Program-made: the position numbers and the translations under genes | IMG/VR virus record: IMGVR_UViG_3300045988_021627 | Coordinates: 1 to 33,792 of that record | DNA from: a virus | Strand: one strand, 5' to 3' | Length of the DNA stretch: 33,792 nt | Notes under the pieces: generated by a model | Database searches by the model: none | The model's input: the letters and a program-made list of their open reading frames with translations, nothing else | What the model was told of the DNA's origin: nothing | Shown: positions 1 through 33,792 of the stretch, piece by piece | How positions within the stretch are numbered: position 1 is the stretch's first letter | Layout of the letters: the number at the start of each line of letters is the position of its first letter

Positions 1-119
1 AACTTCGTTAAGAACCTAATTATTTCCGGGCTTAAGTATTTGCATGACCAGTTACCCGAGGTTAACAAAATTACTGTAATCGGTATATGTGGAAACCATT
101 CAAGAACTACAAAAAAAAT
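1..119. repeat. Terminal overlap copy 1. It is identical to 33674-33792, so the genome is circular or terminally redundant with a unit length of 33,673 bp.
   Basis: Read directly: 1-119 (aacttcgttaagaacc...caagaactacaaaaaaaat) matches 33674-33792 base for base. An ORF crosses the junction in frame. Confidence 0.95.
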
Positions 120-558
120 GCAGTTTAGCAACGGTTTCGAGATGAATTATGAATATTTTATGTACAAGGACGTAGAGCATACATTAACACTTATGGGGCT
201 GACAAAATTCAGTTTCATTATCCCCGAAAGTGAATTTGCATATATCGACGTGTACGGAAAGAAAGTGCTATTTGCGCACGGGCATCAATTCCGCACGGCT
301 GGCGGCATCGGAGGTATTTACCCGTCTATGATGAGATGGTACGCCAAAATGAACCAAACAATACAAATTGATAAAGCCTTTATCGGGCATTACCACCAAA
401 TGATATATACTAAAGAGGTTTGCGTGAACGGTTCTTTGAAAGGCTTCGATGCCTTTGCGATGGGACACGGGTTGGCATACGAAGAGCCACAGCAAACATA
501 CGTTATTCTGAACGAAAAGAGAGGATTTATTTTCTACTCACCTATCTTTGCCGATTAA
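1..558 (+). CDS. Calcineurin-like metallophosphoesterase, C-terminal part. It continues 33131..33792 across the circular junction; the full protein is about 366 aa.
   Basis: The frame matches 33131..33792 when 33674 is mapped to 1. Motifs present: GICGNHS (GNH), FAHGH and IGHYH (GHxH). Stop TAA at 556-558, followed by a terminator. Confidence 0.85.
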   Translation, partial: NFVKNLIISGLKYLHDQLPEVNKITVIGICGNHSRTTKKMQFSNGFEMNYEYFMYKDVEHTLTLMGLTKFSFIIPESEFAYIDVYGKKVLFAHGHQFRTAGGIGGIYPSMMRWYAKMNQTIQIDKAFIGHYHQMIYTKEVCVNGSLKGFDAFAMGHGLAYEEPQQTYVILNEKRGFIFYSPIFAD

Positions 559-563
559 GTTAA

Positions 564-606
564 AGGGCTACTAATTGTTAAATAGATGCAATTGGTAGCC
601 CTTTTT
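564..606 (+). terminator. Rho-independent terminator after the metallophosphoesterase gene
   Basis: A 14-bp stem, AGGGCTACTAATTG (564-577) with CAATTGGTAGCCCT (589-602), has one G-U pair and is followed by a T-run (602-606). Confidence 0.8.
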
Positions 607-637
607 CTTGTTTATTAAAAACATTGTTGTACCTTTG
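607..637 (+). promoter_or_regulatory. Bacteroidota-type promoter upstream of the DNA polymerase gene
   Basis: TTG at 608-610 and the -7 box TACCTTTG at 630-637 are separated by 19 nt. This fits the Bacteroides -33 TTTG / -7 TAnnTTTG consensus. Confidence 0.6.
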
Positions 638-673
638 CCGTTATAATAGTAATAACAATTAAAACAAGTGATT

Positions 674-2692
674 ATGCGAAATTTATTTATTGACTTCGAA
701 ACATTTAGCACTACAGACATCAAAAAAGCTGGTAATTATAAATACTGTGAGGACGAGAATTTTGAAATTCTCCTTTGCGGTTTCATGTGGGACACAGATA
801 CGGACGTTAGGATTATAGACCTAACGAAGCCCGGGGGGTTGGACGAGTTCAACACGTTGTTCACGTATGTACAGAGCGCCGAGGACGTTATGATAGTAGC
901 ACACAACGCTACGTTTGAACGTATCTGTTTGCGTGAGTACGGGTTTGACATCAGCCCTATGCGTTTTTTCTGTACTGCTAATATGTCCTTGTATTGCGGT
1001 ATGCCTGCATCGTTGGAAGCGGTATCTAATATCCTCAACCTGGACGATAAGAAGAAGGGCACGGGCAAAAACCTAATACGCTACTTTTCTATCCCCTGCA
1101 AACCTACCAAAACAAACGGAGGCCGCACACGTAATTTGCCGGAACACGCCCCCGAGGACTGGGAGGAGTTCATCGACTACCTACGTTATGACGTGCTATC
1201 TGAAAAGGAGATTTTCGGTAAGCTGTCAAGGTTTGAATTCCCGGAAGAAGAGCAGCGCATTTATGCAGCCGACCAGCGTATAAACGACTACGGTATATTG
1301 GCCGACCTCGAGCTGGCACACGCCGCCCAGGATATGGACGAAGAATATAAGGCGCGTCTAACCGAGAAAGCAGAGAAGGAATTCGGGCTAAGTTCTCTAA
1401 AGTCCATGCCACAGTTAAAAGGCTTCATTAAAGAGCGTACAGGCTTGGTTATCGATTCACTCAATAAGAATAACATCGAGGGGGTGATAAGGACCATAGT
1501 GAGCCTCAAAAACGTTACTGACGGGGATAAGCAAGCAGTGTTAGACGTTATCGACCTACGTAGGGAGATAGGTAAAACGTCGAACGCCAAATACACCGCC
1601 ATGCTTGCAAGCGCCGGGAGAGGCAACCGTATTAGAGGACTGTTCCGTTACTATGGTGCGAGCCGTACCGGGCGATGGGCTGGGTGCTTAGTTCAATTAC
1701 AGAACCTACCGCAAAACCACATCGAAGACCTGGACGGGGCGCGAGACCTGGCAAAGATGCACGATTTGGACATGATGGAAGTTATATATGACAAGCCTAC
1801 GCATATACTTTCGCAGCTAATACGCACCGCGTTTATCGCCCCCGAGGGGTACACGTTTTCTGTGGCAGACTTCTCGGCAATTGAAGCCCGAGTAATTGCA
1901 TGGGTTGCTAATGAGCAATGGCGTTTAGACTTATTTAATGACCCGAAAGCTGATATTTATTGCGCCTCGGCATCTAAAATGTTCGGTGTCCCAGTACACA
2001 AGGGGGACGACTTAAGGCAGCGAGGGAAGGTTGCAGAGCTTGCATTGGGTTATGGGGGCGGCGTTAATGCTCTTACTACAATGGATATTAAAAAAGCGTT
2101 AAAAGACGAAGAAAAACCTCAGATATTGTCAAAATGGAGAGAAGCTAATAAAAAAGTAGTATCTTTGTGGCGTTCGTTAGAAGATTGCGCAAAGCGATGT
2201 ATCGGAACGAGACGCGAACAAGTTTATAGGATAGACGACGTTTCAAGTATTATTTTCCGATATGAGAGCGGCGCGATGACTATTGAACTACCGAGCGGTA
2301 GAAAGCTATTCTACCCGTCGGCAAGAATGGGGAAACGTACCATAGAAGGCGTTAACGGCTCTTTTGAGGTTGAGGACATCTCCTATATGGGTCAAGACCA
2401 AACTTCCGGGAAGTGGGTTAAGCTAAACACCTACGGCGGCAAGCTAACCGAGAACGTTGTGCAGGCGATAGCCCGTGACTTGCTGGCGAATGCAATTTTC
2501 AAGGTATTTGATTTAGGCTTTAATATCGTGTTGCATGTTCACGATGAGATAGTCGCCGAGATACCGAAGGACGGAAACGAAGAAAAGACGCTGCAAATAA
2601 TGAGCGATGCCATGTGCAACGCCCCGAGTTGGGCAAAAGGCATTCCGTTAAGAGCAGCAGGATATATTACTGATTATTACAAAAAAGATTAA
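674..2692 (+). CDS. Family A DNA polymerase with an N-terminal 3'-5' exonuclease domain
   Basis: 672 aa counted from ATG 674 (the track ORF opens at GTG 668). Exonuclease motifs: FIDFETFS, HNATFE, YLRYDV. Polymerase motifs: DFSAIEARV (A), RQRGKVAELALGYGGG (B), HVHDEIV (C). Confidence 0.93.
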   Translation: MRNLFIDFETFSTTDIKKAGNYKYCEDENFEILLCGFMWDTDTDVRIIDLTKPGGLDEFNTLFTYVQSAEDVMIVAHNATFERICLREYGFDISPMRFFCTANMSLYCGMPASLEAVSNILNLDDKKKGTGKNLIRYFSIPCKPTKTNGGRTRNLPEHAPEDWEEFIDYLRYDVLSEKEIFGKLSRFEFPEEEQRIYAADQRINDYGILADLELAHAAQDMDEEYKARLTEKAEKEFGLSSLKSMPQLKGFIKERTGLVIDSLNKNNIEGVIRTIVSLKNVTDGDKQAVLDVIDLRREIGKTSNAKYTAMLASAGRGNRIRGLFRYYGASRTGRWAGCLVQLQNLPQNHIEDLDGARDLAKMHDLDMMEVIYDKPTHILSQLIRTAFIAPEGYTFSVADFSAIEARVIAWVANEQWRLDLFNDPKADIYCASASKMFGVPVHKGDDLRQRGKVAELALGYGGGVNALTTMDIKKALKDEEKPQILSKWREANKKVVSLWRSLEDCAKRCIGTRREQVYRIDDVSSIIFRYESGAMTIELPSGRKLFYPSARMGKRTIEGVNGSFEVEDISYMGQDQTSGKWVKLNTYGGKLTENVVQAIARDLLANAIFKVFDLGFNIVLHVHDEIVAEIPKDGNEEKTLQIMSDAMCNAPSWAKGIPLRAAGYITDYYKKD

Positions 2693-2695
2693 ATT

Positions 2696-5134
2696 ATGGA
2701 TTTACGAAAAATGGTTTTTAAAATTGCTACAGCGAGTAGCGCGAAGTCTACTTCATGGAAAAACCGTTCTTTCTCATGGGACGAGTTAACCGAGAAGCTG
2801 ACAAAGGCAACCGTTACGGATGAGACGTACCGGGAGTTTATAAGCGCGAGCAAAGCCGAGCAGGGTAATATTAAAGACGTAGGCGCATTCATGGGCGGCG
2901 AATTGTTCGGTAGCCGTAGAAACAAAAACAATGTAGGCGAGCGTTCCATTTTGGCGCTTGATATTGACTACGGAGAAAAGAACTTCCCCGAAATGTTCTA
3001 CTCTGTTATTAATTGCGCATGTATCATTCACGGAACGCACAGGCACAACCCGAAAGCGAATACACTTCGTTACCGTGTTATCATTCCGTTGTCCGAACCA
3101 GTGGATGGGGAGCAATACGAGGCTATCGCCCGTAAGGTCGCCGAGTTGACGGGTATCGACTTGTACGACAGAACGACGTTTCAACCCGAACGCTGTATGT
3201 TTTTCCCGTCGGTTTCCAAAGACGTAGAGTATGAGTTTATAGATTACTCGGCATTCAACGAAAACCCTTTGGACGTGCAAAAGTATTTGGATATGTACGA
3301 CGATTGGAGCAATACGACCGAGTGGGCGTACCACAAGGACGAGAAAGGCGAAGCCCGGACGCTTGCTAAAGAACAGCAAGACCCCACACTAAAAGAGGGT
3401 AATGTGGGTGACTTCTGTAGAGCCTACACGATTAGCGAGGTTATCGCGGAATACCTATCGGACGTTTACGAACCTACCGAGCAGGAGGACAGATGGACGT
3501 ATACGGGTGGTTCTACTTCAGGCGGTATGCTTACCTTCAATGATATGTTCGCTTATTCGTTCCATAACAACGACCCGATACAGGGCAACCACGTGTTCAA
3601 CGCCTACGACCTTGTACGTGTACACAAGTTCGGTAAGCTGGATAAAGGCGCGGATAGGAAGAACTCGACCGAAGCCATGAACGAGTTGGTAAACAAGGAT
3701 GCAAAGGTAGCCGCGGCACGTGCCCGGATGCTGGCAGTTAAGGCTGGTGAAATCATGGACGATTTCGACGACGTTATAGAAGTAGAAGAAGCAACAGACA
3801 GCGACGTAGCGACAACGTATGAGGACGCGATGGCGAAGCTCGAAACGGACAAGCGCGGCGCTTACCTCCCATCTGCAAAGAATTTAGGGTTGATAATGAA
3901 GTATGACCCGAATTTAAAGGGGCTTATAGCGCGAGACCTATTTAAAGAGCGCCGGGTTGTTACCCGTGTACCTCCATGGCGCGCGAAAGATACCTCTTTG
4001 GACTTCCAGGACGTGGACTATTCGGGCGTACGTAAACACATTGAGGATATTTATGGCATATCGAATAGTGCAAAGATTGACGATGCTATAGCGCTGTCCG
4101 CGGAAATGAACTCATTCCACCCCGTGCAGGAATACCTAACCAAATTAAAGTGGGACGGTATCGAAAGAGTTGATAAAGCGCTTACCCATATCATGGGAGC
4201 GGAAGATAACATATACACCCGTGAGGCATTCCGTATCATGATGGTAGGGGCTGTTAAACGTATATTTCAAAAGGGGTGCAAATTCGACAGCATGTTAGTT
4301 CTACAGTCCGAGCAGGGCGCAGGAAAGAGCACATTCATCCAAAAGCTGGGTAAGCAATGGTTCTCCGATAGCCTTTCAAGTATGGACGGTAAGGGCGCTT
4401 TTGAACAATTGCAGGGTAACTGGATATTGGAGGTAGCCGAGTTGTCAGCAATGAGACGTTCAGAAGTTGAAGGCGTGAAAAACTTTATTTCCAAAACGGA
4501 GGACAGCTTCAGACCGGCATACGGACGCGTTACCAAGAACTTCCCCCGGCAATGCGTCTTTATAGGTACGACCAACCGGGACGAATTTCTAAAGGACGAT
4601 ACGGGCGGCAGACGCTTTTTGCCCGTGAAGGTTAAGGCGAACGCGAATACGCATCTTATCTTTGAAAAGGGGTTCGACGATTATGTAGACCAGCTATGGG
4701 CTGAAGCCGTACAAATGTATTTCCGCAAGGTAAGTACGTTACTATCTCGCGAAGCCGAGGCGATTGCCGAGGAAGGACGCGAAGAGCATTTCGAGGCAGA
4801 CCCCCGTACCGCATCGGTGGAGGCGTATTTGGATATGCTTGTACCTACCGATTGGAGGCGCATGTATGTGAATGAAAGGCGCATGTACTTTAGAGAGTAC
4901 GACGAATCGAAGGTAGACCCGGAAGACTTTACACTGGGAAAGATGGACTTCGTGTCCATTATGCAAATCGCTACAGACGTGTTCGAGATGGAAGTAGGGC
5001 GCGTAACCGCTAAAGAGAGCAGAGAGATAGCCGCCATCATGTCTAAGGTACAAGGGTGGCGGCGATCGGCGAACGGGAAAACCGTTATGGGTATCGGACG
5101 CGTACGAGGGTTTGAGCGTATTGTTAACGAGTGA
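2696..5134 (+). CDS. Primase/helicase fusion: an AEP (prim-pol-like) N-terminal domain plus a VirE/D5-type P-loop NTPase
   Basis: 812 aa. The N-terminal half has the acidic motif LALDIDYG. The C-terminal half has Walker A SEQGAGKST and Walker B WILEVAELS. The start lies 4 nt after the polymerase stop. Confidence 0.8.
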   Translation: MDLRKMVFKIATASSAKSTSWKNRSFSWDELTEKLTKATVTDETYREFISASKAEQGNIKDVGAFMGGELFGSRRNKNNVGERSILALDIDYGEKNFPEMFYSVINCACIIHGTHRHNPKANTLRYRVIIPLSEPVDGEQYEAIARKVAELTGIDLYDRTTFQPERCMFFPSVSKDVEYEFIDYSAFNENPLDVQKYLDMYDDWSNTTEWAYHKDEKGEARTLAKEQQDPTLKEGNVGDFCRAYTISEVIAEYLSDVYEPTEQEDRWTYTGGSTSGGMLTFNDMFAYSFHNNDPIQGNHVFNAYDLVRVHKFGKLDKGADRKNSTEAMNELVNKDAKVAAARARMLAVKAGEIMDDFDDVIEVEEATDSDVATTYEDAMAKLETDKRGAYLPSAKNLGLIMKYDPNLKGLIARDLFKERRVVTRVPPWRAKDTSLDFQDVDYSGVRKHIEDIYGISNSAKIDDAIALSAEMNSFHPVQEYLTKLKWDGIERVDKALTHIMGAEDNIYTREAFRIMMVGAVKRIFQKGCKFDSMLVLQSEQGAGKSTFIQKLGKQWFSDSLSSMDGKGAFEQLQGNWILEVAELSAMRRSEVEGVKNFISKTEDSFRPAYGRVTKNFPRQCVFIGTTNRDEFLKDDTGGRRFLPVKVKANANTHLIFEKGFDDYVDQLWAEAVQMYFRKVSTLLSREAEAIAEEGREEHFEADPRTASVEAYLDMLVPTDWRRMYVNERRMYFREYDESKVDPEDFTLGKMDFVSIMQIATDVFEMEVGRVTAKESREIAAIMSKVQGWRRSANGKTVMGIGRVRGFERIVNE

Positions 5135-7042: not shown

Positions 7043-7224
7043 TAAGCGGACAAGAATACGCGTACGGTATCGGAGACGAGATAGTACATAACGGAGAGGT
7101 TTTAAAGTATAGGGGCTATTATAACGGACACCTCTACACAACTACAGTAGACCACGAAGCCGGGGAATTCTCCGAAACAGTGGTATTTGAAAACAAATTG
7201 AGAAATGAAGGATATAATAAGTGA
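7039..7224 (+). CDS. Hypothetical protein (61 aa)
   Basis: ATGA start/stop overlap with the upstream gene suggests translational coupling. Confidence 0.55.
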   Translation: MISGQEYAYGIGDEIVHNGEVLKYRGYYNGHLYTTTVDHEAGEFSETVVFENKLRNEGYNK

Positions 7225-7543
7225 AAAAGATTTAGAGCGTACATTCTCCGAGAAGCTTAACCGAACAAAAAAAGTGTGGGTAATAAAACTATTATCCACC
7301 TTTATAAAAGGTTTGCCGGATAGAATGATACTTTGCCAGGGTGGATATGTAGGCTTCGCCGAGATAAAGACCACGGGTAAGAAACCAACCAAGATGCAAT
7401 TACTGATACACAGCAAGTTAGAGGCTTTGGGCTTCAAAGTATTTGTTATCGACGATTTGGAAAGCAGGGACGCTGCAATAAGTTTTTTCTTAAACAATGT
7501 TAAGGGAATAAACAACGTACCGGGAAAAGGGTTATCTTTGTAG
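7205..7543 (+). CDS. VRR-NUC domain nuclease
   Basis: 112 aa. PD-(D/E)xK signature GLPDRMIL...GFAEIKTTGKKPTKMQ, typical of VRR-NUC. An SNF2 helicase is encoded nearby, as in many phages. Confidence 0.8.
   Translation: MKDIISEKDLERTFSEKLNRTKKVWVIKLLSTFIKGLPDRMILCQGGYVGFAEIKTTGKKPTKMQLLIHSKLEALGFKVFVIDDLESRDAAISFFLNNVKGINNVPGKGLSL
7499..7540 (+). promoter_or_regulatory. Early-class promoter E2, embedded in the 3' end of the VRR-NUC gene
   Basis: GTTAAG 7499-7504, AACGTA 7514-7519 and TATCTTTG 7533-7540, with the same phasing as E1. The ATG of the methyltransferase lies 28 nt after the box. Confidence 0.6.
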
Positions 7544-7567
7544 TATCAAATTTAAAAATAAACAAGT

Positions 7568-8284
7568 ATGAAGTATTTAGGAGGTAAGACAAGAATAGCA
7601 AAGGAAATCTTGCCTATAATTTTGGCAGATAGAAAGGAAGGGCAGTATTTCGTCGAGCCGTTTTGCGGTGGGTGCAATGTGACTGCCAAGGTATCGGGAA
7701 ACAGGATAGCAAACGATTGCAACGAGTATTTGATAGCTATGTTTGTAGGTTTGCTATCCGGGGAAAAATACCCCGAGCAAATAGACCCCGAACTGTATAA
7801 TGACGTTAGAGAGTGCTTTCGTTCGGGGTCTGACAAATACGACCTTGGTTTTATGGGCTGGGTGGGGTTTATGGCTTCTTACAGGGGCAAATTCTTTGGT
7901 GGCTACTCCGGCGCATACTGGAGAAGTGACGGCAGGCACATAGACAGCATATCCGAGGCTGTGAGTGGCATAGCAAAGCAGATACCCAAATTGCAGGGCG
8001 TGGAGTTTCGCTCCGGGGACTACAAGAACCTACGAATTCCCGATGAGTCCATAATATACTGCGACCCCCCATATATGGGTACTACAGGATACTCGGACGA
8101 TATAAAACACGATGAGTTTTGGCAGTGGTGTCGGGAGCGTGTTTACGACGGTCATAAAGTTTATGTATCCGAATATCAAGCCCCGGACGACTTTATTACA
8201 ATTTGGGGGAAGCCAATACAGAATTGCATTAGCCTCGATAAAAAAGCTACCGAGAGATTATTTATTTATAAAGGACAATTTTAA
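7568..8284 (+). CDS. N6-adenine DNA methyltransferase, D12 (Dam) class, with no partner restriction enzyme
   Basis: 238 aa. KYLGGK N-terminus, AdoMet motif FVEPFCGG and catalytic motif DPPY. Confidence 0.88.
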   Translation: MKYLGGKTRIAKEILPIILADRKEGQYFVEPFCGGCNVTAKVSGNRIANDCNEYLIAMFVGLLSGEKYPEQIDPELYNDVRECFRSGSDKYDLGFMGWVGFMASYRGKFFGGYSGAYWRSDGRHIDSISEAVSGIAKQIPKLQGVEFRSGDYKNLRIPDESIIYCDPPYMGTTGYSDDIKHDEFWQWCRERVYDGHKVYVSEYQAPDDFITIWGKPIQNCISLDKKATERLFIYKGQF

Positions 8285-8294
8285 AACAGAAATC

Positions 8295-8537
8295 ATGAAA
8301 AAGAGAAGTTTAAAAGAAGAGATAGAATACCGTTTAGGCATGTACTTCGGCATCAAGTCCGGCGCGCTGTATGTCCGCGACGATAAGTTCGGTAACACAG
8401 AGGAAATACTAAACCAGTTGCAACGCGATATTACCCGAGACGTTAATTTCCTTTCGCGTAAAACACTGGGATACGTATCGGATGAGCAGGACTTCAAAAG
8501 CATTTGCGTGTTTTACAAAACAAAATTAATGAAGTAA
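8295..8537 (+). CDS. Hypothetical protein (80 aa)
   Basis: I use the internal ATG 8295 (MKKRSLKEEIEY...). The track ORF 8112..8537 would overlap the methyltransferase gene by 170 nt. Confidence 0.6.
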   Translation: MKKRSLKEEIEYRLGMYFGIKSGALYVRDDKFGNTEEILNQLQRDITRDVNFLSRKTLGYVSDEQDFKSICVFYKTKLMK

Positions 8538-8544: not shown

Positions 8545-8721
8545 ATGGTAAACTATATAGATTTAAAGTTAAAGTGTATCGCAGGACACACCGAAATAGT
8601 AATGAATGGTCAGCGCATTAAGTGCGCTGCCGATTACGACAGAGTAATAGGGCACATAACCCCGGCAGCTCTCCATGAGTTCAGCGCCCAGTTATCAATG
8701 ATAAAAGCAATGTTATGTTAG
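8545..8721 (+). CDS. Small hypothetical protein (58 aa), absent from the ORF track
   Basis: My translation starts MVNYIDLKLKCIAGHTEIVMNGQRIKCAADYDRVIGH. It fills the gap before the SNF2 gene and overlaps that gene's start by 7 nt. Confidence 0.45.
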   Translation: MVNYIDLKLKCIAGHTEIVMNGQRIKCAADYDRVIGHITPAALHEFSAQLSMIKAMLC

Positions 8722-10318: not shown

Positions 10319-10591
10319 ATGGAAAAGTATTCAAAAGCAGTTAGCGAGATGTATTCGCAGTTTGAAAAGAGAGAAGCCCACCCGATGGAGAAGTATATAG
10401 GGAGATTGGCTAAATGCAACGGCGAGAAATTGGAAGTAGTGGGGTATAGGGACAATGAATGTAACTTTCCGCTTATAGTAGAAGTTTCCAAACTCGGAGG
10501 ATGGTATTGTGAGTTTTTAGACCCGCAAGATGTTGTAGTCAAAGAGTGCGAAAGATATTGGTATGTCAGTGTTAACGATTTAATAGATTAG
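10319..10591 (+). CDS. Hypothetical protein (90 aa)
   Basis: ORF directly downstream of promoter E3 and the conserved leader. Confidence 0.65.
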   Translation: MEKYSKAVSEMYSQFEKREAHPMEKYIGRLAKCNGEKLEVVGYRDNECNFPLIVEVSKLGGWYCEFLDPQDVVVKECERYWYVSVNDLID

Positions 10592-10596
10592 AGGTT

Positions 10597-11007
10597 ATGG
10601 TTAGAAACAAGGATTTTGCAGTACTGTACGCAGGCCGTGCAGTATTCAACAAGAACGGCGAGTTTGCCGGTGTGGTGGTCGGTTGGAACGAAATACGCGG
10701 TGTGATAGTGGACGGTTGGTCATCCTGGGGTGCTAACGGTATGAGCGTGTCCGGGGATGGATTTTTGTCCTACGAATACCGCAACGCCGGGACGCTGGTA
10801 GAACCGGACGAGCTGATGGATGAGGAGGAAGTCTCAAAGCATATGACGATAGGCGAGCTTATCAAGGGGCACGAGGGCGTGCAGGGCGTCCAATTCTCTA
10901 CGGACGGGCAAGGTAGCGTACAAGCCGCCTATATCCGTGGTAAGCACGGCGGCTTGAAGCTTGTAAGCATGGGAGACGGCTTAGAAAATGTATCATCAAA
11001 AATTTAA
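10597..11007 (+). CDS. Hypothetical protein (136 aa)
   Basis: Tightly packed ORF in the operon. I recognise no motif. Confidence 0.6.
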   Translation: MVRNKDFAVLYAGRAVFNKNGEFAGVVVGWNEIRGVIVDGWSSWGANGMSVSGDGFLSYEYRNAGTLVEPDELMDEEEVSKHMTIGELIKGHEGVQGVQFSTDGQGSVQAAYIRGKHGGLKLVSMGDGLENVSSKI

Positions 11008-11012
11008 AAGAT

Positions 11013-11126
11013 ATGGAAGCATTAATGTGTTTATTTGGAATTGCGATAGGCGCGGGTTTGGTAACTGGTTTGTGGCTTGTGGCTAAATTTGCAGCCCGTT
11101 ATATAGATGGTGAGTACAACGAATAA
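11013..11126 (+). CDS. Small membrane protein (37 aa), absent from the ORF track
   Basis: MEALMCLFGIAIGAGLVTGLWLVAKFAARYIDGEYNE has one transmembrane helix. TAATG overlap with the next start. Confidence 0.4.
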   Translation: MEALMCLFGIAIGAGLVTGLWLVAKFAARYIDGEYNE

Positions 11127-11452: not shown

Positions 11453-11711
11453 GCTTAAATGGGGCGATCGGACGGCCGCAAAGGTTGCCGAAGTAGATTA
11501 CCTTATCGGTATCAGATTAGTGGGCTACACGAGCCTAAAGGACGTGATTATAGTGGAAGTACATGGGAGTGTGGCAGACGAGGTGGGTGCATGGAGCGCG
11601 CCCGAAGGTTTATATAGCGCAGGCAGCAGCGACGTGTTCGTGAAGAAGCCGCGAGCCGGGGCGTATTACAAGTATATAAAACTTAAAAACATCGTGCATG
11701 AAGAAAGTTAG
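11427..11711 (+). CDS. Hypothetical protein (94 aa)
   Basis: I use the internal ATG 11427 (MKEPKLPHRLKW...). The upstream part of track ORF 11214..11711 overlaps 11126..11452 out of frame and is Arg-rich, like a shadow frame. Confidence 0.5.
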   Translation: MKEPKLPHRLKWGDRTAAKVAEVDYLIGIRLVGYTSLKDVIIVEVHGSVADEVGAWSAPEGLYSAGSSDVFVKKPRAGAYYKYIKLKNIVHEES

Positions 11712-19281: not shown

Positions 19282-21789
19282 ATGGCAACAGAAAAAGTTA
19301 CTCTATTAGACCTTTCGTTTGATACGTCATCAGCCCTCGATGGGCTGGACGCTCTTATAGCAAAGTCCGTCGAACTGGCAGAAACAAAGAGCCAGCTAAT
19401 GACAGCGCTTAAGGACGAAAAGAAGCAGTTGGACGATGCAGGCAAGGCGTACAAAGCCGGGACAATCGGACAAGACGAGTATAAAAAGGCAGTAGGCGAT
19501 GCGGCAAAGGCTCAAATAGAATTGAAAAAGCAGTTGCTAGATGTCAACGCGTCAATCTCCGATAACAACCGCGAGATAAAGACGAACACGACGCTCTTAA
19601 ACAGCCAGGAGGACAGCGTTGATGCGTTACGTGCGCAGCTTGCAAAGAACACCAAGGAGCTAAACGCAATGAGCGCAGCGACGCGCAACAACACGGACGA
19701 GGGGCAGAAGCTTGTGACTGAAACAAAGGAGATAAGCGACAAGCTTAAGGACATGGAAAAAGCTGTAGGCGATAACCGCAGGAACGTAGGTAACTATGCG
19801 GAAAGCATCCAGGAGGCAATGGGCAGCACGAAGGGGCTTTCCGGGGCTACGGCGGCTATGGCTACCTCTCTATCCGGGGGCGTGAACATCTTAAAAGTGT
19901 TTAATGCTACGTTGAGAGCCAACCCGATATTGGCGGTAGTTTCCGTTATCCTTGTTCTTGTGTCCACTATTGAAAAGCTGATGAAACGCAATAGTGAGAT
20001 GGCGGCAAACCTAAAGGCGGCATTCGCTCCGTTTGAGGTTATCTTCTCGCGCATATTGGACGGCGTTACCGAGCTTCTCGGGGGTGTGGCAAAGGCTTTT
20101 GAATGGGTAACGGAGAAGGTTGTTAACTTGCTTTCGTCTATCGGTCTTATTACCGAGGAGACCACGAAGGCAGCGAACACAGCCAAAGCACTCACCAAGC
20201 AAGAGCTTGCAATATACGAGGCAGAAACCGACAACCTTGTAACGCTGTCGGCGATGCGTAGGGAACTGGAAGCGCAACGTACCATTGTGGGAGACCAACT
20301 AAAGACCGCAGAAGAACGAAACGCGGCAGCGCAAAAGGCTATCGCGATTTCCAAGCAGATGGAAAAAGCCGAAATAGACGTGCTGCAACAGAAGTACAAT
20401 CAAATCAAGGCGCAGAACGAATTGAGTTACACAAGCAAGGAAGACAGACGCGCCGAGATGCAAGCACTGGCAGACCTGCAAGCACGCCAAGCCGATTATA
20501 TCGGGCAGCGTAAAGAGTTGGAGAACCAGGCGAGCGGTATTGTAAAGGCGCAGATAGCAGCCAACGCAGCAGCATACAAGGCATCCGAGGCAGCAAAGGC
20601 ACAAGCCGCAATAAAGGCAGCGCAGAACGCGGAAAACCAAAAGCGCGCTTTGCAAGAAGCTACAATCAAACAGATGGAAACAGCGTTAACGGCTCTTAAC
20701 CTTTCAATGCAAGCTAAGGAACTGGAAAACAATACCATAGAGACGAAGTTAGAAAACGAAAAGGCATACGTAGAGGAAAGTTTAAAGCTTGAAAAGTACA
20801 GATTAGAGCAGGGTCTCATCTCAAAGCAGGAATACGCCAACAAGGAAGCCGAGTTTGATTTAGGCATACAACAGTTGGAGATGCAACGCAAAGAAGAGCA
20901 AGACGCTCTTATGAAGGAACGCGAAGCGATGGACGCGGCAAACTTGCATGAGCTTAAGATGGCAGAAGTTACCAACGAATTCGATATGCGCCAAATGCAA
21001 CTCGATGCGCAATACGCGCAAGAGATGGCGGCAGCCGAGAAGATAGGCGCGGACACCGCGTTGATACAAGCCAAATATGAGAAGGCGAAGGAAGAGAACA
21101 CCAAGGCACGCGTTAATGCAGAACTGACAATGACGGCAGGACTTGCAGGACAAATGTCAACACTGTTAGGGGAGCAAAGTGCTATCGGTAAGGCATTTGC
21201 GGTTGTTCAAGCGACAATAAATACTTACTTAGGTGCAACAAAAGCGCTGGCAAGCGGTGGTATATTCGGTATTGCACAAGCCGCTATCGTGATTGCTTTC
21301 GGTATGAAACAAGTTGCTACGATTGCAAAGCAGAAAGACCCCGATACGAAAATTAACACATCGGTCAAGAAGTATGCAAAAGGTGGGCAGATATACGGGC
21401 GTTCCCATGCGCAGGGCGGTGTGACGTTCCGGGGCGATAACGGGCAGGTGTTCGAGGCAGAGGGCGGTGAAAACGTTTATATCCTGAAGAAGACAGCAAG
21501 CGCCGAGATTAACGCACTGTCTGCACTCAATGAGGCGCACGGGGGCAATTCGTTCGGTACGTCGGGGCTTTACAAGTTTGCTGATGGCGGTATGGTTGCC
21601 GGGCTTTCCGAAGCTAACCGGGTAGTTAAGCAAGCTGGGAGCATGAAGTTATCAAACGAAAGTATTAACCAACTCGCCGGGGTAGTTATCGACGCAGTGA
21701 TGAGCATGCCTAACCCCGTTGTATCGGTGCAGGACATCAACAACGGACAAAACGATGTTTCGGTAGTCCAGGGGTTGGCAACATTTTAA
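19282..21789 (+). CDS. Tape-measure-like protein or ejection protein (835 aa)
   Basis: Long Ala/Lys/Glu/Gln coiled-coil stretches. Hydrophobic segments PILAVVSVILVLVSTI and GIFGIAQAAIVIAFGM. Gly-rich C-terminal motif GGQIYGRSHAQGGVTFRGDNGQVFEAEGGE. Confidence 0.6.
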   Translation: MATEKVTLLDLSFDTSSALDGLDALIAKSVELAETKSQLMTALKDEKKQLDDAGKAYKAGTIGQDEYKKAVGDAAKAQIELKKQLLDVNASISDNNREIKTNTTLLNSQEDSVDALRAQLAKNTKELNAMSAATRNNTDEGQKLVTETKEISDKLKDMEKAVGDNRRNVGNYAESIQEAMGSTKGLSGATAAMATSLSGGVNILKVFNATLRANPILAVVSVILVLVSTIEKLMKRNSEMAANLKAAFAPFEVIFSRILDGVTELLGGVAKAFEWVTEKVVNLLSSIGLITEETTKAANTAKALTKQELAIYEAETDNLVTLSAMRRELEAQRTIVGDQLKTAEERNAAAQKAIAISKQMEKAEIDVLQQKYNQIKAQNELSYTSKEDRRAEMQALADLQARQADYIGQRKELENQASGIVKAQIAANAAAYKASEAAKAQAAIKAAQNAENQKRALQEATIKQMETALTALNLSMQAKELENNTIETKLENEKAYVEESLKLEKYRLEQGLISKQEYANKEAEFDLGIQQLEMQRKEEQDALMKEREAMDAANLHELKMAEVTNEFDMRQMQLDAQYAQEMAAAEKIGADTALIQAKYEKAKEENTKARVNAELTMTAGLAGQMSTLLGEQSAIGKAFAVVQATINTYLGATKALASGGIFGIAQAAIVIAFGMKQVATIAKQKDPDTKINTSVKKYAKGGQIYGRSHAQGGVTFRGDNGQVFEAEGGENVYILKKTASAEINALSALNEAHGGNSFGTSGLYKFADGGMVAGLSEANRVVKQAGSMKLSNESINQLAGVVIDAVMSMPNPVVSVQDINNGQNDVSVVQGLATF

Positions 21790-27461: not shown

Positions 27462-27937
27462 TTGAACAACTGGAGGCCTATTTCCGCACGTTTTTTGCTG
27501 TTACCGTTCTGGCAGTAGTTACGGATATACGGGACTTTATATTTTTAGTGGTTATCGTTACCGCGTTGAACTGGTTGGTAGGTTATTTGGCAGACAGGGC
27601 GAAAGGAAAGCCCTACAAGCACAAAAAGGCCATGCAGGCAGTTAAGGAGTTGTTCCTAACCAATGCGATTCTTTTCTTTGTAGCGCTCACTTGCAATATG
27701 CTCGAGCCCGGGATAGATTATCAGCTTTTAGTTAAAGCGCTCACTGGTATATTCCTTATTATATACGCGCGTAACATAACAAGAAACCTACGGGTGGTTC
27801 AGCCGGGAAATGAATTTGTGAAAGTGCTTAACAGCATAGCGAACAGCAAGTATTTCCAACTTAAAAAAAAGATTAAGGATGGCGAATTTGAAACACCCTT
27901 AGAAGAAAAGGAGAAAGAAGATGGCGAACAGCAGTAA
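27458..27937 (+). CDS. Holin-like membrane protein
   Basis: 159 aa with 3-4 hydrophobic helices (FFAVTVLAVV, FIFLVVIVTALNWLVGYL, AILFFVALT, LTGIFLIIYA). GTG start overlapping the previous stop (GTGA). It lies directly upstream of the endolysin gene. Confidence 0.6.
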   Translation: MIEQLEAYFRTFFAVTVLAVVTDIRDFIFLVVIVTALNWLVGYLADRAKGKPYKHKKAMQAVKELFLTNAILFFVALTCNMLEPGIDYQLLVKALTGIFLIIYARNITRNLRVVQPGNEFVKVLNSIANSKYFQLKKKIKDGEFETPLEEKEKEDGEQQ

Positions 27938-28436
27938 GTTAGTACCGTTCATCCTGCAATGGGAGGGCGGTTTCGTTAATGACCCCGACGACCTCGGGGG
28001 CGCAACAAACAAAGGTATAACTATAGGCACATTCACCGAATACAAGAAGCGGAAGGGGCAAAAAGCCCCGACCGTTGAAGACTTGAAAAACATATCGGAT
28101 GCAGACTGGCACGATGTTTTCAAGTCCTTGTATTGGGATAGGTGGAAAGCCGACGAGATTAAAAGCCAGGCAGTAGCCAATATCTTAGTTGACTGGGTGT
28201 GGGCTTCCGGTTCGCACGGTATAAAGCGCCCACAACGTCTTTTGGGCGTCAAGGCGGACGGTATTGTAGGTAAACAGACCATTGCAGCCCTTAACGCTAT
28301 GGACGCGGCTACGCTCTTTAAAATGATTAAAGACGATAGGGCAAAGTTCATTGATGAGATATGCAAGGCGAGACCCAAAAACGAGAAATACCGCAAGGGG
28401 TGGATGAACCGTATTAACGCGATACGCTATGAATAA
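27921..28436 (+). CDS. Endolysin: GH108-type lysozyme with a C-terminal peptidoglycan-binding domain
   Basis: 171 aa. The N-terminal sequence ILQWEGGFVNDPDDLGGATNKGIT is the GH108 signature. The C-terminal ...GWMNRI fits PG_binding_3. Confidence 0.85.
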   Translation: MANSSKLVPFILQWEGGFVNDPDDLGGATNKGITIGTFTEYKKRKGQKAPTVEDLKNISDADWHDVFKSLYWDRWKADEIKSQAVANILVDWVWASGSHGIKRPQRLLGVKADGIVGKQTIAALNAMDAATLFKMIKDDRAKFIDEICKARPKNEKYRKGWMNRINAIRYE

Positions 28437-29007
28437 ACTACAAAAGATAATTATAGGCTTTGCAGTCCTTATGGTGCTATTCGGTGCAATAACCAAGATG
28501 GTAGACACCATAAGGAAGCAAAGAGCCGAAATAGGACGTTTAGAGCGTAACGTTGAGGCGATGAGCGACGTGCAGATAGAGTACAAAACAAAGCTCGGTG
28601 ATGCAGCAGTGAAGCATAAAGCTTTAGAGATGTCGCACAAGGAGTTAAAGAAGACGAACGCGGAACTATATAAAGAGGTGGACGCGCTTAACGTTCGGGT
28701 GAAAGACGCGCTTTCCGCGACACGTACCGTTACCAAGACCGTAATAAAGGAGGTAGTACGTACCGATACGGTAGCCGGGGAGCTTATAGCCGAATACCGG
28801 GACGCATGGAACACGATACAAGCAAGGGTTAAACGGGATAGCACGGAATTAAGCTATCAAGGCAGGGACACGATAACGGGTGTTATCACAGTCCGAAAGA
28901 AAAAGTTTTTGTTTTTCAGATGGGGGGTCAAGGCTATAGAGCACGACGTATCGAATAAAAACCCCAAATCGAAGATAGATATAGACATAGCGGTAAAGCT
29001 AAAATAA
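28429..29007 (+). CDS. Spanin-like or lysis accessory protein (N-terminal membrane anchor plus coiled coil)
   Basis: 192 aa. Transmembrane anchor IIIGFAVLMVLFGAI is followed by a charged coiled coil. It is the last gene before a terminator. Confidence 0.5.
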   Translation: MNKLQKIIIGFAVLMVLFGAITKMVDTIRKQRAEIGRLERNVEAMSDVQIEYKTKLGDAAVKHKALEMSHKELKKTNAELYKEVDALNVRVKDALSATRTVTKTVIKEVVRTDTVAGELIAEYRDAWNTIQARVKRDSTELSYQGRDTITGVITVRKKKFLFFRWGVKAIEHDVSNKNPKSKIDIDIAVKLK

Positions 29008-29046: not shown

Positions 29047-29056
29047 TTTACATTCG

Positions 29057-29402: not shown

Positions 29403-29603
29403 TAATGTCAAAAGGAAACAAGGTTGTTCTTTACCGAAACTAAGAACACGACACCCTTAAAAGGAAAGTTTGAAAAGTGAATGGGATTCAAACACCGGGT
29501 TACCCAACGACAAAGAAAAGAGGTCACCAAGACATTAAACTGGAAATAACCGTGAACAAGTAAGAACGTAGATTTGTTACTAGCGTATAAAACGAAGCGA
29601 AGT

Positions 29604-29786: not shown

Positions 29787-29816
29787 AACCTTATGGAGGC
29801 TATTTTCTTAAATAAG

Positions 29817-29858
29817 GTTAACAAGTGAACCAACGTATTTGCAAAAGCGTTATATTTG
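29817..29858 (+). promoter_or_regulatory. Early-class promoter E5
   Basis: GTTAAC 29817-29822, AACGTA 29832-29837 and TATATTTG 29851-29858. The ATG lies 27 nt after the box. Confidence 0.7.
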
Positions 29859-29884
29859 CATCAACAATTTAAAAAGATAAAGTT

Positions 29885-30160
29885 ATGAATGGGCAAAAGT
29901 TTATTATCGACGAAGTGAAAAAGCACTTGCAGGCGAGCGCGAGAAAGAACAAATACCAAGTTATCGACGCGGTGCAGGAAATGCCGACATTTGAGGGCTT
30001 TATACTTCCTTACTACGTCTCCACAATGGAGGGAACGAAATACCTCGTGAACGTTGAGGAAATGTATATCTACTGCGACGAGTGGGACGGGTTCTATAAC
30101 GAGACGGTAGCCAAGGTTGCACAAGCCATTTTGGAAGCCGAACAAATCAAAGAAGCATAA
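29885..30160 (+). CDS. Hypothetical protein (91 aa)
   Basis: ORF directly downstream of promoter E5. Confidence 0.65.
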   Translation: MNGQKFIIDEVKKHLQASARKNKYQVIDAVQEMPTFEGFILPYYVSTMEGTKYLVNVEEMYIYCDEWDGFYNETVAKVAQAILEAEQIKEA

Positions 30161-30192
30161 ATTAGTTATTCACCATATAAAAAGAAAAGAAA

Positions 30193-30747
30193 ATGAAGAT
30201 TACACCGTTAACAATCGATTTTGACGTTACAAACGCACAAGAAGTAGAATTTGTAAATGACCTAATGAACCGTCTATTTGGAAGCGCGCCGCTTAAGGCT
30301 ATGCCAGCGACTACAGAGAACCCAGTAAACAGTACAAGCGTACCGACGTTTAGCGAACCGACGCAGACCGCTGCACCCGTTCAGGAAGTGAAGGAAGAGC
30401 CGAAGCAAGAAAATATCACCGAGGCTATCGCAGAAGTGAAAAAAGAAATGAAAAAACCTGAAAAGGTAACGAAGCCAAAGACCGTAAAGGAAGCCCCACA
30501 AGCGACGATTGAACCCGAACCCGTACAAGCTCCCGTCGAAGAGGAGAAAGCCCCGGAGAAAGCCTCAAATGAGCCTCTAACGGCAAAGGACATGCAGGCA
30601 TTCATGATTGATTTAATGAAAACCGGGAAAATCACCCGACCGCAATTAACGGATATCATGCTGGAGTTCGGTGGTGCATCCCTTATGCGTATCAAGCCAG
30701 AGAAGTACGAGCTATTGAAACAACGTATTGAAACCTATAACGATTAA
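30193..30747 (+). CDS. Hypothetical protein (184 aa) with a Pro/Glu/Lys-rich central linker
   Basis: ORF with a low-complexity PEPVQAPVEEEKAPEK region between two small folded-looking ends. It lies upstream of the nuclease gene. Confidence 0.6.
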   Translation: MKITPLTIDFDVTNAQEVEFVNDLMNRLFGSAPLKAMPATTENPVNSTSVPTFSEPTQTAAPVQEVKEEPKQENITEAIAEVKKEMKKPEKVTKPKTVKEAPQATIEPEPVQAPVEEEKAPEKASNEPLTAKDMQAFMIDLMKTGKITRPQLTDIMLEFGGASLMRIKPEKYELLKQRIETYND

Positions 30748-30751
30748 AAAA

Positions 30752-31930: not shown

Positions 31931-31935
31931 AAGAA

Positions 31936-31977
31936 GTTAACGAAAGAACCAACCTATCAGATAAAGCGTTATATTTG
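31936..31977 (+). promoter_or_regulatory. Early-class promoter E6
   Basis: GTTAAC 31936-31941, AACCTA 31951-31956 and TATATTTG 31970-31977. The ATG lies 27 nt after the box. Confidence 0.7.
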
Positions 31978-32003
31978 CATTATCAATTTAAAAACAAAAC
32001 GAT

Positions 32004-32333
32004 ATGAAAAGTAACAACGGTATTTTAACGGAGAAAGAGATTCAAGCAAGAACAAAGTTTTGGAACAAAAAGCAATTCCGCACCTGGGGTAAAAAAGAAC
32101 TTGAAAGAACCTCTAAAGACATGCAAAATCTTTTGGTAGCTATAAAGGAGTTCAGCCTGGACGAGATTGAGGCTATTAGAAAGTTAGAAGAGTATGGCTA
32201 TAAAGCATACGTGTATGGCCTTAGGGCATACGAAAAGAAGAGCCCAGAGTATATCATATGTATGGCGGACCAAAGAGACTTAGATTATGCTATTTCGATA
32301 GCACCGAAAACTTTTAAAGTTAAACAAGGTTAA
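32004..32333 (+). CDS. Hypothetical protein (109 aa)
   Basis: ORF directly downstream of promoter E6 and the leader TTTAAAAACAAAACGATATG. Confidence 0.65.
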   Translation: MKSNNGILTEKEIQARTKFWNKKQFRTWGKKELERTSKDMQNLLVAIKEFSLDEIEAIRKLEEYGYKAYVYGLRAYEKKSPEYIICMADQRDLDYAISIAPKTFKVKQG

Positions 32334-32370
32334 CAGAGTAAACAACCTATTGAATTATTTGTTATCTTTG
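32329..32370 (+). promoter_or_regulatory. Early-class promoter E7
   Basis: GTTAAC 32329-32334 (overlapping the upstream stop codon), AACCTA 32344-32349 and TATCTTTG 32363-32370. Confidence 0.65.
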
Positions 32371-32433
32371 CAACATCAAATTAAAAACGGAACGCCCAAA
32401 CCGATTAGAGGGCAAAAACAAAACAAGTTTATT

Positions 32434-32973
32434 ATGAAATTAATGATTAAGAACGTGAGATTGAGTTATGTTAGATTGTTTGAAGCGCAACAAGTCAACG
32501 GACAAGGAGAAGCAAGTTACAGTGTATGTTTATTGATTCCGAAGGATAGCCCGGAAGTTCCAAAGATTAAGGCAGCTATTGAAGCCGAGTTTTCAGCCCT
32601 TAAGGTACGTTATCCGAAGCTGAACGGCAAAGACCCGAAGGTATGGACTAACCCGTTAAGAGATGGGGATGCCGAGAAAGACGGTGCAGAGTATCAAGGT
32701 TGCTACTTTATCAACGCAAAGCGCAAAGAGAAGCAAGGCGCGCCTATCGTAATCGACGGTAGAAAACAGTACATCACAGACCCGAACGAGGTTTATAGCG
32801 GTTCATGGGGCAACGTAGCCGTATCATTCTACCCCTATGAGTTTACCGGGAAATACGGTATCGGCGTAGGCTTGAACGGTGTGCAGAAGGTAAGAGACGA
32901 CGAAAGACTGGACGGCGGTACAAGCATTGACGATTTCGATTTTGAAGACGAGAACGACGATTTATTCAACTAA
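32434..32973 (+). CDS. Phage ssDNA-binding protein (DUF2815 type)
   Basis: I use ATG 32434. The N-terminus MKLMIKNVRLSYVRLFEAQQVNGQGEASYSVCLLIPKD matches the DUF2815 pattern, and the C-terminal tail is acidic (DDFDFEDENDDLF). The track start at 32350 lies inside promoter E7. Confidence 0.75.
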   Translation: MKLMIKNVRLSYVRLFEAQQVNGQGEASYSVCLLIPKDSPEVPKIKAAIEAEFSALKVRYPKLNGKDPKVWTNPLRDGDAEKDGAEYQGCYFINAKRKEKQGAPIVIDGRKQYITDPNEVYSGSWGNVAVSFYPYEFTGKYGIGVGLNGVQKVRDDERLDGGTSIDDFDFEDENDDLFN

Positions 32974-32981
32974 ACAGATTA

Positions 32982-33014
32982 ATAACCGGGCGGTGTAATG
33001 CCGCCCAAAATAAA
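32982..33014. repeat. 33-bp direct repeat, copy 1 (contains a hairpin), on the 5' side of the tRNA
   Basis: ATAACCGGGCGGTGTAATGCCGCCCAAAATAAA is identical to 33090-33122. The internal stem is GGGCGG/CCGCCC with loop TGTAATG. Confidence 0.95.
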
Positions 33015-33090
33015 GTCCCATAGCTCAATTGGTTAGAGCACTACACTGATACTGTAGAGGTCGGCAGTTCAACTCTGCCCGGGACTACCA
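33014..33090 (+). tRNA. tRNA-Ile, anticodon GAU, with an encoded CCA end
   Basis: Manual cloverleaf: acceptor AGTCCCA/CGGGACT (one mismatch at 7-66), U8, D arm GCTC-AATTGGTTA-GAGC, anticodon arm CTACA-CTGATAC-TGTAG, variable loop AGGTC, T arm GGCAG-TTCAACT-CTGCC, discriminator A, then CCA. Confidence 0.85.
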
Positions 33091-33122
33091 TAACCGGGCG
33101 GTGTAATGCCGCCCAAAATAAA
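33090..33122. repeat. 33-bp direct repeat, copy 2, on the 3' side of the tRNA
   Basis: Identical to 32982-33014. It starts at the last A of the tRNA's CCA. Confidence 0.95.
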
Positions 33123-33130
33123 AAGCAAAA

Positions 33131-33792
33131 ATGGGGAAATATGATTCGTACGTAAACGCAGAAGGCGTTAGAATTTCAAAAGCGACGGGCAAACCGTTGA
33201 AGAAGTATAATAAAGTCAACAAGGCATATTGGGCGGCTCGTGAGGGCAAAACGGTAGTAGCAGTACAGCAACCTATCGTTGAGGCTGACCCGTTGATAGA
33301 GGAGCTTAAAAGCTATTACAACGAGGAAGAGCTAAAGGGTATTATCGGTTTGAAGAAGGACGCGCCCCCCGTCGAACTGGTAGACATCACACCGAAGAAA
33401 AAGACATCACTCGATGAGGGTAACACGGGCTTTCTTATTGCATCAGACTGGCATGCTGACGAAGTGGTAAAAGCTTCTACGGTGTTGGGCAAAAACGAGT
33501 ATAACAAGGATATTGCAGAAAAGCGTATCACTAATTTCTTTGCAAATGCCGCGTACATGATAAAGAGAAAGCCCGTAGATAACCTGGTTATCGGTTTGAT
33601 TGGTGACATGATAGGCGGCTACATACACCCCGAACTCGAGCAAACAAATAGCATGTCACCTATGCGAGGTGTTAACTTCGTTAAGAACCTAATTATTTCC
33701 GGGCTTAAGTATTTGCATGACCAGTTACCCGAGGTTAACAAAATTACTGTAATCGGTATATGTGGAAACCATTCAAGAACTACAAAAAAAAT
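33131..33792 (+). CDS. Calcineurin-like metallophosphoesterase, N-terminal part (runs off the window and continues at 1..558)
   Basis: My translation starts MGKYDSYVNAEGVRISKATGKPLKKYNK... and contains ASDWHADE (DxH) and GLIGDMIGG (GD). There is no stop before the window end. A-rich leader. Confidence 0.85.
   Translation, partial: MGKYDSYVNAEGVRISKATGKPLKKYNKVNKAYWAAREGKTVVAVQQPIVEADPLIEELKSYYNEEELKGIIGLKKDAPPVELVDITPKKKTSLDEGNTGFLIASDWHADEVVKASTVLGKNEYNKDIAEKRITNFFANAAYMIKRKPVDNLVIGLIGDMIGGYIHPELEQTNSMSPMRGVNFVKNLIISGLKYLHDQLPEVNKITVIGICGNHSRTTKK
33674..33792. repeat. Terminal overlap copy 2 (identical to 1-119)
   Basis: Read directly from the sequence. Confidence 0.95.

Follow-up and report, generated by a model that had tools for sequence, protein, structure and literature searches.

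The stretch of DNA considered here, IMG/VR virus record IMGVR_UViG_3300045988_021627, is 33,792 nucleotides long and is referred to in its entirety as the window. It is a phage genome that shares 88-90% identity, across most of its length, with siphophages of ~34 kb. These were isolated on Bacteroides uniformis (BU2-1, BU183P1, C2_18_80S2P, EMB1/2, BU1-1 and BU730P1) and on B. xylanisolvens (BX788P2). Its genes encode a family-A DNA polymerase, a VapE-like primase-helicase, an SNF2 helicase and a small nuclease, along with packaging, head, tail and lysis functions. Directly after the small nuclease gene lies a gene for a D12-class N6-adenine DNA methyltransferase (hereafter the methylase), and the genome that carries it is almost devoid of GATC. 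Phages of this clade have been placed in a proposed family, each being reported to infect only the strain on which it was isolated; neither methylases nor restriction of these phages is discussed there (PMC12694917).

GATC occurs exactly twice in the window (Table 1), both times inside GGCGATCGG, as an earlier note made from the letters alone had reported. The remaining GATN words are plentiful, also as described there, with 240 copies of GATA. About 100 copies of GATC had been anticipated in that note, which is of the right order, as the models used here give 76 to 126. Base composition predicts 126 copies and a second-order Markov model 76 (observed/expected 0.026); at a mean of 76, the Poisson probability of two or fewer copies is ~3e-30 by our own arithmetic. 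Shuffling synonymous codons within the coding 85% of the genome, which keeps the proteins and codon usage, yields 83.0 ± 7.4 copies, with a minimum of 63 in 1000 trials (z = -11). The depletion withstands both null models, extends across the clade and behaves like the counter-selection that had been proposed.

GATC is not the only word affected. CTAG is found twice, against 68 copies expected under the Markov model and 45 ± 5 under the codon shuffle (z = -7.7), while GGNNCC, the NlaIV-type word, is absent where the codon shuffle predicts 63.6 ± 6.8 copies (z = -9.4). Degenerate motifs for testing were drawn from published Bacteroides methylomes. Six further words are depleted three- to seven-fold: GGCC (21 observed, 83-93 expected, four-fold low; z = -8.4 by codon shuffle), GGNCC (8 observed, 48 expected), GANTC (21 and 62), CCCGC (7 and 46), CTSAG (6 and 35) and CCTGA (8 and 38). 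CTGCAG, ACCGGT, GGTACC and GGCGCC are absent from the window. Thirteen of the 16 palindromic tetranucleotides are at normal levels, the exceptions being GATC, CTAG and GGCC. The control words GTAC, AGCT, CCWGG, GATGC, GATATC and CATATG have observed/expected ratios of 0.9-1.1, and TCGA is normal as well. Restriction-type words have thus been removed selectively, a different picture from the general compositional bias that the earlier note had considered. That note singled out GATC. Its depletion is indeed extreme, but CTAG and GGNNCC are equally depleted and some six more motifs are several-fold low, so that GATC is one among about nine targets and no singular feature.

To place the window among its relatives, 59 further loci were fetched from IMG/VR with the small nuclease gene adjoining the methylase as the query. 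The close clade comprises 57 members, genomes and fragments together, and amounts to 1.03 Mb. Across these 57 loci there are 34 GATC (0.033/kb) and 56 CTAG, and the eight isolate genomes of the clade hold 0-2 copies of GATC and 0-2 of CTAG apiece. GATC depletion is therefore found in all clade members, and it wanes with distance: the observed/expected ratio is ~0.5-0.6 in loci L059 and L061 and 0.6-0.95 in L063-L067. Other Bacteroides phages are unpurged, for example BK687P1 of B. ovatus (GATC 157 observed and 119 expected, CTAG 106 and 85) and SJC15 of B. thetaiotaomicron, which was counted as unpurged with 70 GATC for 122 expected and 72 CTAG for 73 expected. In the Cellulophaga phage phi12:1, GATC is near expectation.

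On top of this fixed GATC/CTAG layer sits a fast-changing, lineage-specific one. GGNNCC, at zero in the window, is also near zero in L016, L057, L062 and BS162P3, whereas most relatives carry 0.4-1.6/kb. Most relatives of 88-90% identity have 17-35 copies of this word. GGCC is at 0 in BU183P1, C2_18_80S2P and L010, against 0.6/kb in the window, and CCCGC, scarce in the phages of B. uniformis (about 10 copies), reaches 100 copies in BS162P3. This last phage, which infects B. salyersiae (L007), has nearly erased GANTC (3 copies), GGNNCC (2) and GGCC (1).

The two GATC and two CTAG that remain in the window are private to it. At both GATC positions all relatives hold a non-GATC word one substitution away, such as GCGAGCGG and GCGATAGG. 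Being private, the four sites are either recent mutations or sequencing errors, and the GGCGATCGG context common to both GATC sites is a coincidence.

Table 1. Features of the window, with positions counted from its first nucleotide
Feature	Position	Strand	Evidence or remarks
Phage genome, apparently complete in length; multi-motif restriction-site avoidance	1..33792	.	Word counts; similarity to B. uniformis siphophages
Residual GATC in VapE-like primase-helicase gene	5064..5067	.	Private; GAGC, GCGC, GTTC and similar in 44 aligned relatives
Small nuclease-like gene, annotated as VRR-NUC/endonuclease in relatives	7205..7543	+	Clade-wide; marks the cassette insertion point
77-bp junction segment (3' end of nuclease gene plus spacer)	7482..7558	+	Recurs after the second methylase (L002 29019-29095, L006 27555-27631), 92% identical
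Methylase cassette, approximate limits	7559..8276	+	blastn junctions in BU183P1, C2_18_80S2P, EMB1 and BU1-1
Accessory D12-class N6-adenine DNA methyltransferase, 238 aa	7568..8284	+	PF02086, motifs, AF2 model, Foldseek
Codons of aa 105-135 (loop and β-hairpin), most variable segment	7880..7972	+	Allele alignment; entropy peak at aa 111-130
Residual GATC	11466..11469	.	Private; GATA or GACA in 41 aligned relatives
Residual CTAG in tape-measure gene	19537..19540	.	Private; TTAG or TTGG in relatives
Residual CTAG	29580..29583	.	Private; CTAA or TTAA in relatives

The depleted words match motifs that published methylomes show to be modified in strains of the Bacteroides group. In the B. fragilis group, each of the five species surveyed has one or more isolates with methylated GATC, often only in particular sub-lineages (PMC10333322). 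The supplements of the same study list a B. salyersiae isolate, BFG-256, with N6-methyladenine (6mA) in GATC, N4-methylcytosine in CTAG and 5-methylcytosine in GGNCC together, and other isolates in which GGNNCC, GGCC, CTSAG, CCTGA, RCCGGY or CTGCAG is methylated. The avoided words GATC, CTAG, GGNCC, GGNNCC, GGCC, CTSAG, CCTGA and CTGCAG are all among the methylated motifs of the group, a correspondence that concerns methylation, not cleavage, and strains other than the host. In B. dorei, GATC methylation is entirely different between two strains, and the chromosome contains 3.59 GATC/kb (PMC4101878), so the host genus itself is not GATC-poor. In addition, B. uniformis D7 methylates RGATCY (bioRxiv 10.1101/2022.11.07.515285). 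Restriction-driven avoidance very probably explains the depletion, with restriction enzymes as the selective agent being the conventional step from data of this kind (PMC6286503). As GATC is methylated in some strains only, its erasure would guard against enzymes that cut the unmethylated site as well as those that cut the methylated one. The suggestion in the earlier note that both methylation-sensitive and methylation-dependent restriction are evaded is plausible given this variation between strains of Bacteroides and Phocaeicola, and would account for GATC having been removed instead of methylated.

The methylase itself is an optional gene. It is present in 15 of the 57 clade loci, always directly after the small nuclease gene. 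In the gene-free relatives BU183P1, C2_18_80S2P, EMB1 and BU1-1, window position 7558 abuts ~8277 by blastn, which makes the cassette ~720 bp long and shows it to consist of the methylase alone. Two phages, BU730P1 and BX788P2, carry a tandem pair whose copies are ~78% identical to each other (27506-28234 and 28237-28965 in BU730P1, L002; 26041-26757 and 26782-27501 in BX788P2, L006). Decayed copies occupy the same insertion point in other loci, with a premature stop in L028 (~10362-11078) and frameshifts in L022 (10364-11075) and L060 (10364-11079), and remnants are found there in L014 (7354-7739) and L029 (10355-10522). The 77-bp junction repeat that flanks the tandem pair may mediate both gain and loss of the cassette. 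Within the junction of the window, 27 nt upstream of the ATG, TATCTTTG (7533-7540) is a putative match to the Bacteroides -7 promoter word, TAnnTTTG.

The upstream nuclease-like gene, whose product has no Pfam match at E<=0.001, is present in all 59 related loci irrespective of the methylase, which indicates that the pair is no restriction-modification system. No cognate endonuclease gene that is inherited with the methylase, as in a type II system, adjoins it, and the cassette holds nothing else. At the 3' end of the methylase, an overlapping open reading frame of 141 aa in another frame (8112-8537, + strand) has no Pfam or PHROG match; relatives annotate a 243-bp open reading frame downstream instead, and that at 8112-8537 is probably spurious.

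Carriage of the methylase and depletion of GATC are evolutionarily uncoupled. GATC density is 0.025/kb in carriers and 0.045/kb in non-carriers (p = 0.3), and the carriers BU2-1, BU730P1 and BX788P2 have zero GATC. The earlier note found it odd that a Dam-class methylase should be encoded by a phage without GATC. On the simplest account there is no paradox: the lineage avoids GATC by sequence and, as a separate matter, sometimes carries an optional methylase whose target is probably another motif. GATC is equally scarce with or without the gene. An association between GGCC count and methylase carriage that was seen in nine isolate genomes disappeared in the 57-locus set.

The predicted protein has the motifs that had been read from the sequence in the earlier note, with MKYLGGK at residues 1-7, FVEPFCGG (motif I) at 28-35 and DPPY (motif IV) at 166-169. 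FVEPFCGG and DPPY are invariant in a 50-member family alignment, and their order is that of the alpha class. Pfam D12 (PF02086) matches over profile positions 1-196 of 253 with a score of 64 bits (cut-off 22, E = 2e-17). The note had taken such motifs as typical of GATC-specific Dam enzymes, which is a weak inference here: the curated Dam model TIGR00571 gives 54.7 bits for the methylase, below its cut-off of 114.85, and 239.5 for the T4 Dam control, and the E. coli Dam equivalog NF008152 gives 16.8 for a cut-off of 441. The AlphaFold2 (AF2) model has a predicted local distance difference test score (pLDDT) of 86.7 and a predicted template modelling score of 0.84. The top Foldseek matches are EcoDam, T4Dam and DpnM, each with probability 1.0 and template modelling scores of 0.55-0.62. 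With these enzymes (PDB 1YFL, 2G1P, 2DPM) the methylase has in common its fold and the order of its motifs, namely a GxK loop, FxGxG, a helical/β-hairpin region and DPPY. It differs from them in being at most ~25% identical (~25% to T4Dam) and 20-40 residues shorter, in failing TIGR00571 and in having a hairpin that cannot be aligned reliably.

Homologues of this protein form a very large family of short, ~235-residue D12 enzymes outside the curated Dam family, with 3005 cluster representatives at E<=1e-10, and members occur in phages of Bacteroides, Vibrio, Cellulophaga, Klebsiella, Enterococcus and Arthrobacter. More than 25 species of Winogradskyella (L078-L134) share, as a conserved orphan in the chromosome, a homologue of 43-46% identity, whose neighbours in the one locus examined (L084, 10001-10705) are genes for a branched-chain amino-acid transporter and an EamA transporter. 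Specificity could not be read from partner nucleases of bacterial homologues, as those of Winogradskyella are orphans and no nuclease is recognisable in the mobile element that contains the B. fluxus copy. Phage T1 Dam was likewise set aside as a characterised relative, being unrelated in sequence. Klebsiella phage KW1 has both a family member and a Dam homologue of the T1 type, with 62% identity to T1 Dam, which suggests that the two have non-redundant targets. A further hint in this direction comes from Enterococcus phage IME-EF4 (L153), which has 0 GATC (71 expected), 0 GGCC and a 34%-identical family member, so that the seeming contradiction recurs in a host group that is unrelated. Four unrelated contigs from Bacteroidales metagenome-assembled genomes, all encoding family members, are also low in GATC: L072 has 0 for 34 expected, L097 has 0 for 31, L111 has 1 for 32 and L142 has 1 for 62. 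These contigs are probably other phages or mobile elements.

Within the clade, methylase alleles are near-invariant outside residues 105-135, 169-181 and 213-226. The first of these segments coincides with a predicted β-hairpin at about residues 116-126 (strands 116-118 and 124-126). Four versions of it exist in the clade, typified by the alleles of the window, DAM_2 of BU730P1, L045 and L013, one version having a four-residue insertion, and tandem copies always hold different versions. The tandem genes of BU730P1 and BX788P2 differ mainly in this hairpin (the 4-aa insertion and a GK to AT change) and in two loops. Pairwise ratios of non-synonymous to synonymous substitution (dN/dS) are 0.3-1.1 within the variable segments and 0.07-0.15 elsewhere, a contrast which implies that selection maintains the enzyme as a whole but lets the surface presumed to recognise DNA diversify. 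In the structures of T4Dam and EcoDam, the β-hairpin is a base-reading element, and by analogy it probably sets the specificity of the methylase as well.

Other variable sites exist in these genomes. At a second hotspot, which corresponds to window ~30160-30193, BU2-1 (L001, 15562-16455) carries an inserted gene for a C5-cytosine methyltransferase (TIGR00675, 142.7 bits); this gene is found neither in the window nor in any other fetched locus. Queries of the C5, N4/N6 and T1-Dam types detected no second methylase in the window. Several relatives have an HNH endonuclease gene between small open reading frames and the SNF2 helicase gene (L003, 29403-29927; L001, 29551-30084). Window ~8714-8721 is without it, which marks another variable cassette site.

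Taken together, these observations are best combined, in our view and with moderate confidence, as two independent anti-restriction devices of an ordinary kind, namely avoidance of many restriction sites and an accessory adenine methylase that probably acts on a target other than GATC. The non-GATC target, taken on its own, is likely. Under such a scheme, the lineage would use point mutations to purge words targeted by the restriction-modification systems of its hosts, with GATC and CTAG purged in every clade member, and GGNNCC, GGCC, GGNCC, GANTC, CCCGC, CTSAG and CCTGA purged variably, tracking the systems that each sub-lineage meets. New sites would arise by single mutations and then be removed, and the four residual GATC and CTAG of the window would be such novelties. 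Removal of GATC would work whether the next host cuts the unmethylated or the methylated site. The orphan methylase, whose ~720-bp cassette undergoes gain, loss, duplication and decay among clade members, would methylate an adenine-containing motif other than GATC, and its methylation would shield sites that have not been purged against a strain-specific restriction system. Of the three explanations offered in the earlier note, a different specificity of the enzyme is the best supported, the two-way evasion of restriction discussed above is reasonable, and action on host DNA is unlikely and without support.

An extension of this scheme is more tentative. The allelic series may represent a swappable β-hairpin and two loops on a near-identical scaffold that re-programme the target, so that phages would shuffle, tandem-stack and discard cassettes according to the restriction systems that each Bacteroides strain possesses. 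We give this reading clearly less than an even chance.

Several points weigh against multi-motif avoidance combined with a methylase of non-GATC target. Some GATC methylases of Bacteroides are orphans (PMC4101878), and from these no selection for avoidance would arise. A search for a protected motif among all 4-6-mers (2603 tests) in the 15 carriers and 42 non-carriers returned nothing significant (best p = 8e-4, threshold 2e-5), and none of 11 degenerate restriction motifs survived correction in the same comparison; no word would be enriched in carriers if the turnover of cassettes outpaced the response of word frequencies. All solved structures that resemble the methylase model (EcoDam, T4Dam and DpnM) are those of GATC enzymes, and in gut phages no other 6mA motif is reported nearly as often as GATC (PMC10711547). 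Finally, the phmmer and hhalign alignments with T4Dam are one register apart in the hairpin, where hhalign has low confidence.

Some of these points favour the chief alternative, which is that the methylase is a true GATC-specific enzyme of the Dam type. It would then either act on host DNA, in replication, repair, gene expression or the disarming of a host system, or insure the phage against newly arisen or recombined GATC sites. Beyond its best matches in sequence and fold among solved structures and the prevalence of GATC among gut-phage 6mA motifs, there is a precedent in a prophage-borne orphan Dam that methylates an entire B. dorei chromosome (PMC4101878). The N-terminal GGK loop and the arginine of an SYR segment could also be equivalent to GATC contacts in the phmmer alignment. 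That alignment places R106 on T4Dam R116, a position that is variable in the wider family, whereas the N-terminal GGK is conserved; transfer of the T4Dam GATC contacts residue by residue was abandoned, as phmmer and hhalign disagree in the hairpin. We regard a GATC specificity as unlikely. The curated Dam model is failed by a wide margin, and the core of the gene is under strong purifying selection although the carriers BU2-1, BU730P1 and BX788P2 have no GATC to methylate. GATC avoidance is not relaxed in carriers, and GATC-rich relatives are without the gene. Moreover, hypervariable hairpins and divergent tandem copies are hard to square with one fixed specificity, and the family member of KW1 coexists with a Dam homologue of the T1 type.

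Less likely still is a methylase of relaxed or near-absent specificity, comparable to Hia5 or M.EcoGII, that would place 6mA across the genome and protect it broadly. With 238 residues compared with 259-278 for T4Dam and EcoDam, the protein is short and its recognition region compact, phage- and prophage-borne non-specific adenine methylases are known (PMC3299994), and such an enzyme would explain why no single motif tracks carriage. However, the structured β-hairpin predicted for it (pLDDT ~86) is precisely the part that varies between alleles, which points to reading of sequence. Divergent tandem copies would also be pointless, and carriers still avoid GATC, CTAG, GANTC and CTSAG, all of which contain adenine.

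A remaining question is whether restriction need be involved at all. Many bacterial genomes contain less CTAG than expected for causes other than restriction. Nevertheless, it is very improbable that the depletion stems from biased mutation or composition, from constraints on codon pairs or from the avoidance of GATC as a signal in host methylation or repair, even with the orphan status of some Bacteroides GATC methylases (PMC4101878) in favour of such an origin, since the depletion withstands the Markov and synonymous-codon nulls and hits restriction-type words alone (TCGA, GTAC and AGCT, of the same composition, are normal), GGNNCC and GGCC profiles differ between 88%-identical phages, and GATC and CTAG are at normal levels in other Bacteroides phages, with a Bacteroides chromosome that is not GATC-poor. 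Restriction-site avoidance with an accessory methylase that probably has a non-GATC target thus remains our preferred explanation.

Both halves of this explanation have parallels in other phages. Restriction-site avoidance in phage genomes is the subject of classical work by Sharp (1986) and McClelland (1985). The Bacillus phages SPR, phi3T and rho11s encode multispecific orphan C5 methylases with exchangeable recognition modules. Like these, the methylase is an orphan without an adjoining restriction gene, is variably present and confines its variation to the DNA-recognition part. The Bacillus enzymes are C5-cytosine methylases with several modules per polypeptide, whereas those described here are N6-adenine enzymes with a single hairpin that occur as alternative alleles or tandem genes. 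Hia5, Hin1523 and Nma1821 are likewise phage- or prophage-borne adenine methylases with DPPY, a divergent recognition region and a presumed broad anti-restriction role (PMC3299994). The likeness is one of motif, origin and presumed role, and the variable hairpin and tandem copies of the clade argue for discrete specificities. Palindrome avoidance as described for other phages (PMC6286503) similarly involves short, mostly palindromic targets that are nearly eliminated, far beyond Markov expectation, in a manner common to relatives and matching motifs of the host group. In the clade it is broader, with three words at about zero and some six others three- to seven-fold low in a single 34-kb genome, and it has a variable GGNNCC/GGCC layer over the fixed GATC/CTAG one. 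No description of avoidance in this clade was found in the literature searched, and a lack of GATC sites is not mentioned in the full text of the paper on B. fragilis phage ATCC 51477-B1. Site avoidance and phage orphan methylases are both textbook subjects, of which this clade, abundant among gut phages, provides a clear, extreme and apparently undescribed instance. More interesting than the original finding are two leads that go beyond it, namely the genome-specific total loss of GGNNCC and the series of hairpin alleles with tandem stacking.

Restriction-modification is the main strain-level barrier for Bacteroides phages, and this genome shows how far sequence editing alone can reach, with three target words all but erased and about six thinned. 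The words erased differ between close relatives, which provides a readable record of the restriction systems that each lineage has met. For annotation, the label 'DNA adenine methylase/Dam' on a D12 match does not imply GATC, and caution is advised. With the allele series, hairpin sequences could be assigned to the motifs that they target. Together with the site record, the series bears on the prediction of host range and on the design of phages and plasmids that survive entry into gut Bacteroides. If the hairpin is indeed swappable, the family would offer a compact code of recognition by adenine methylases of the alpha class, and the compatibility of gut phages with individual strains would become predictable.

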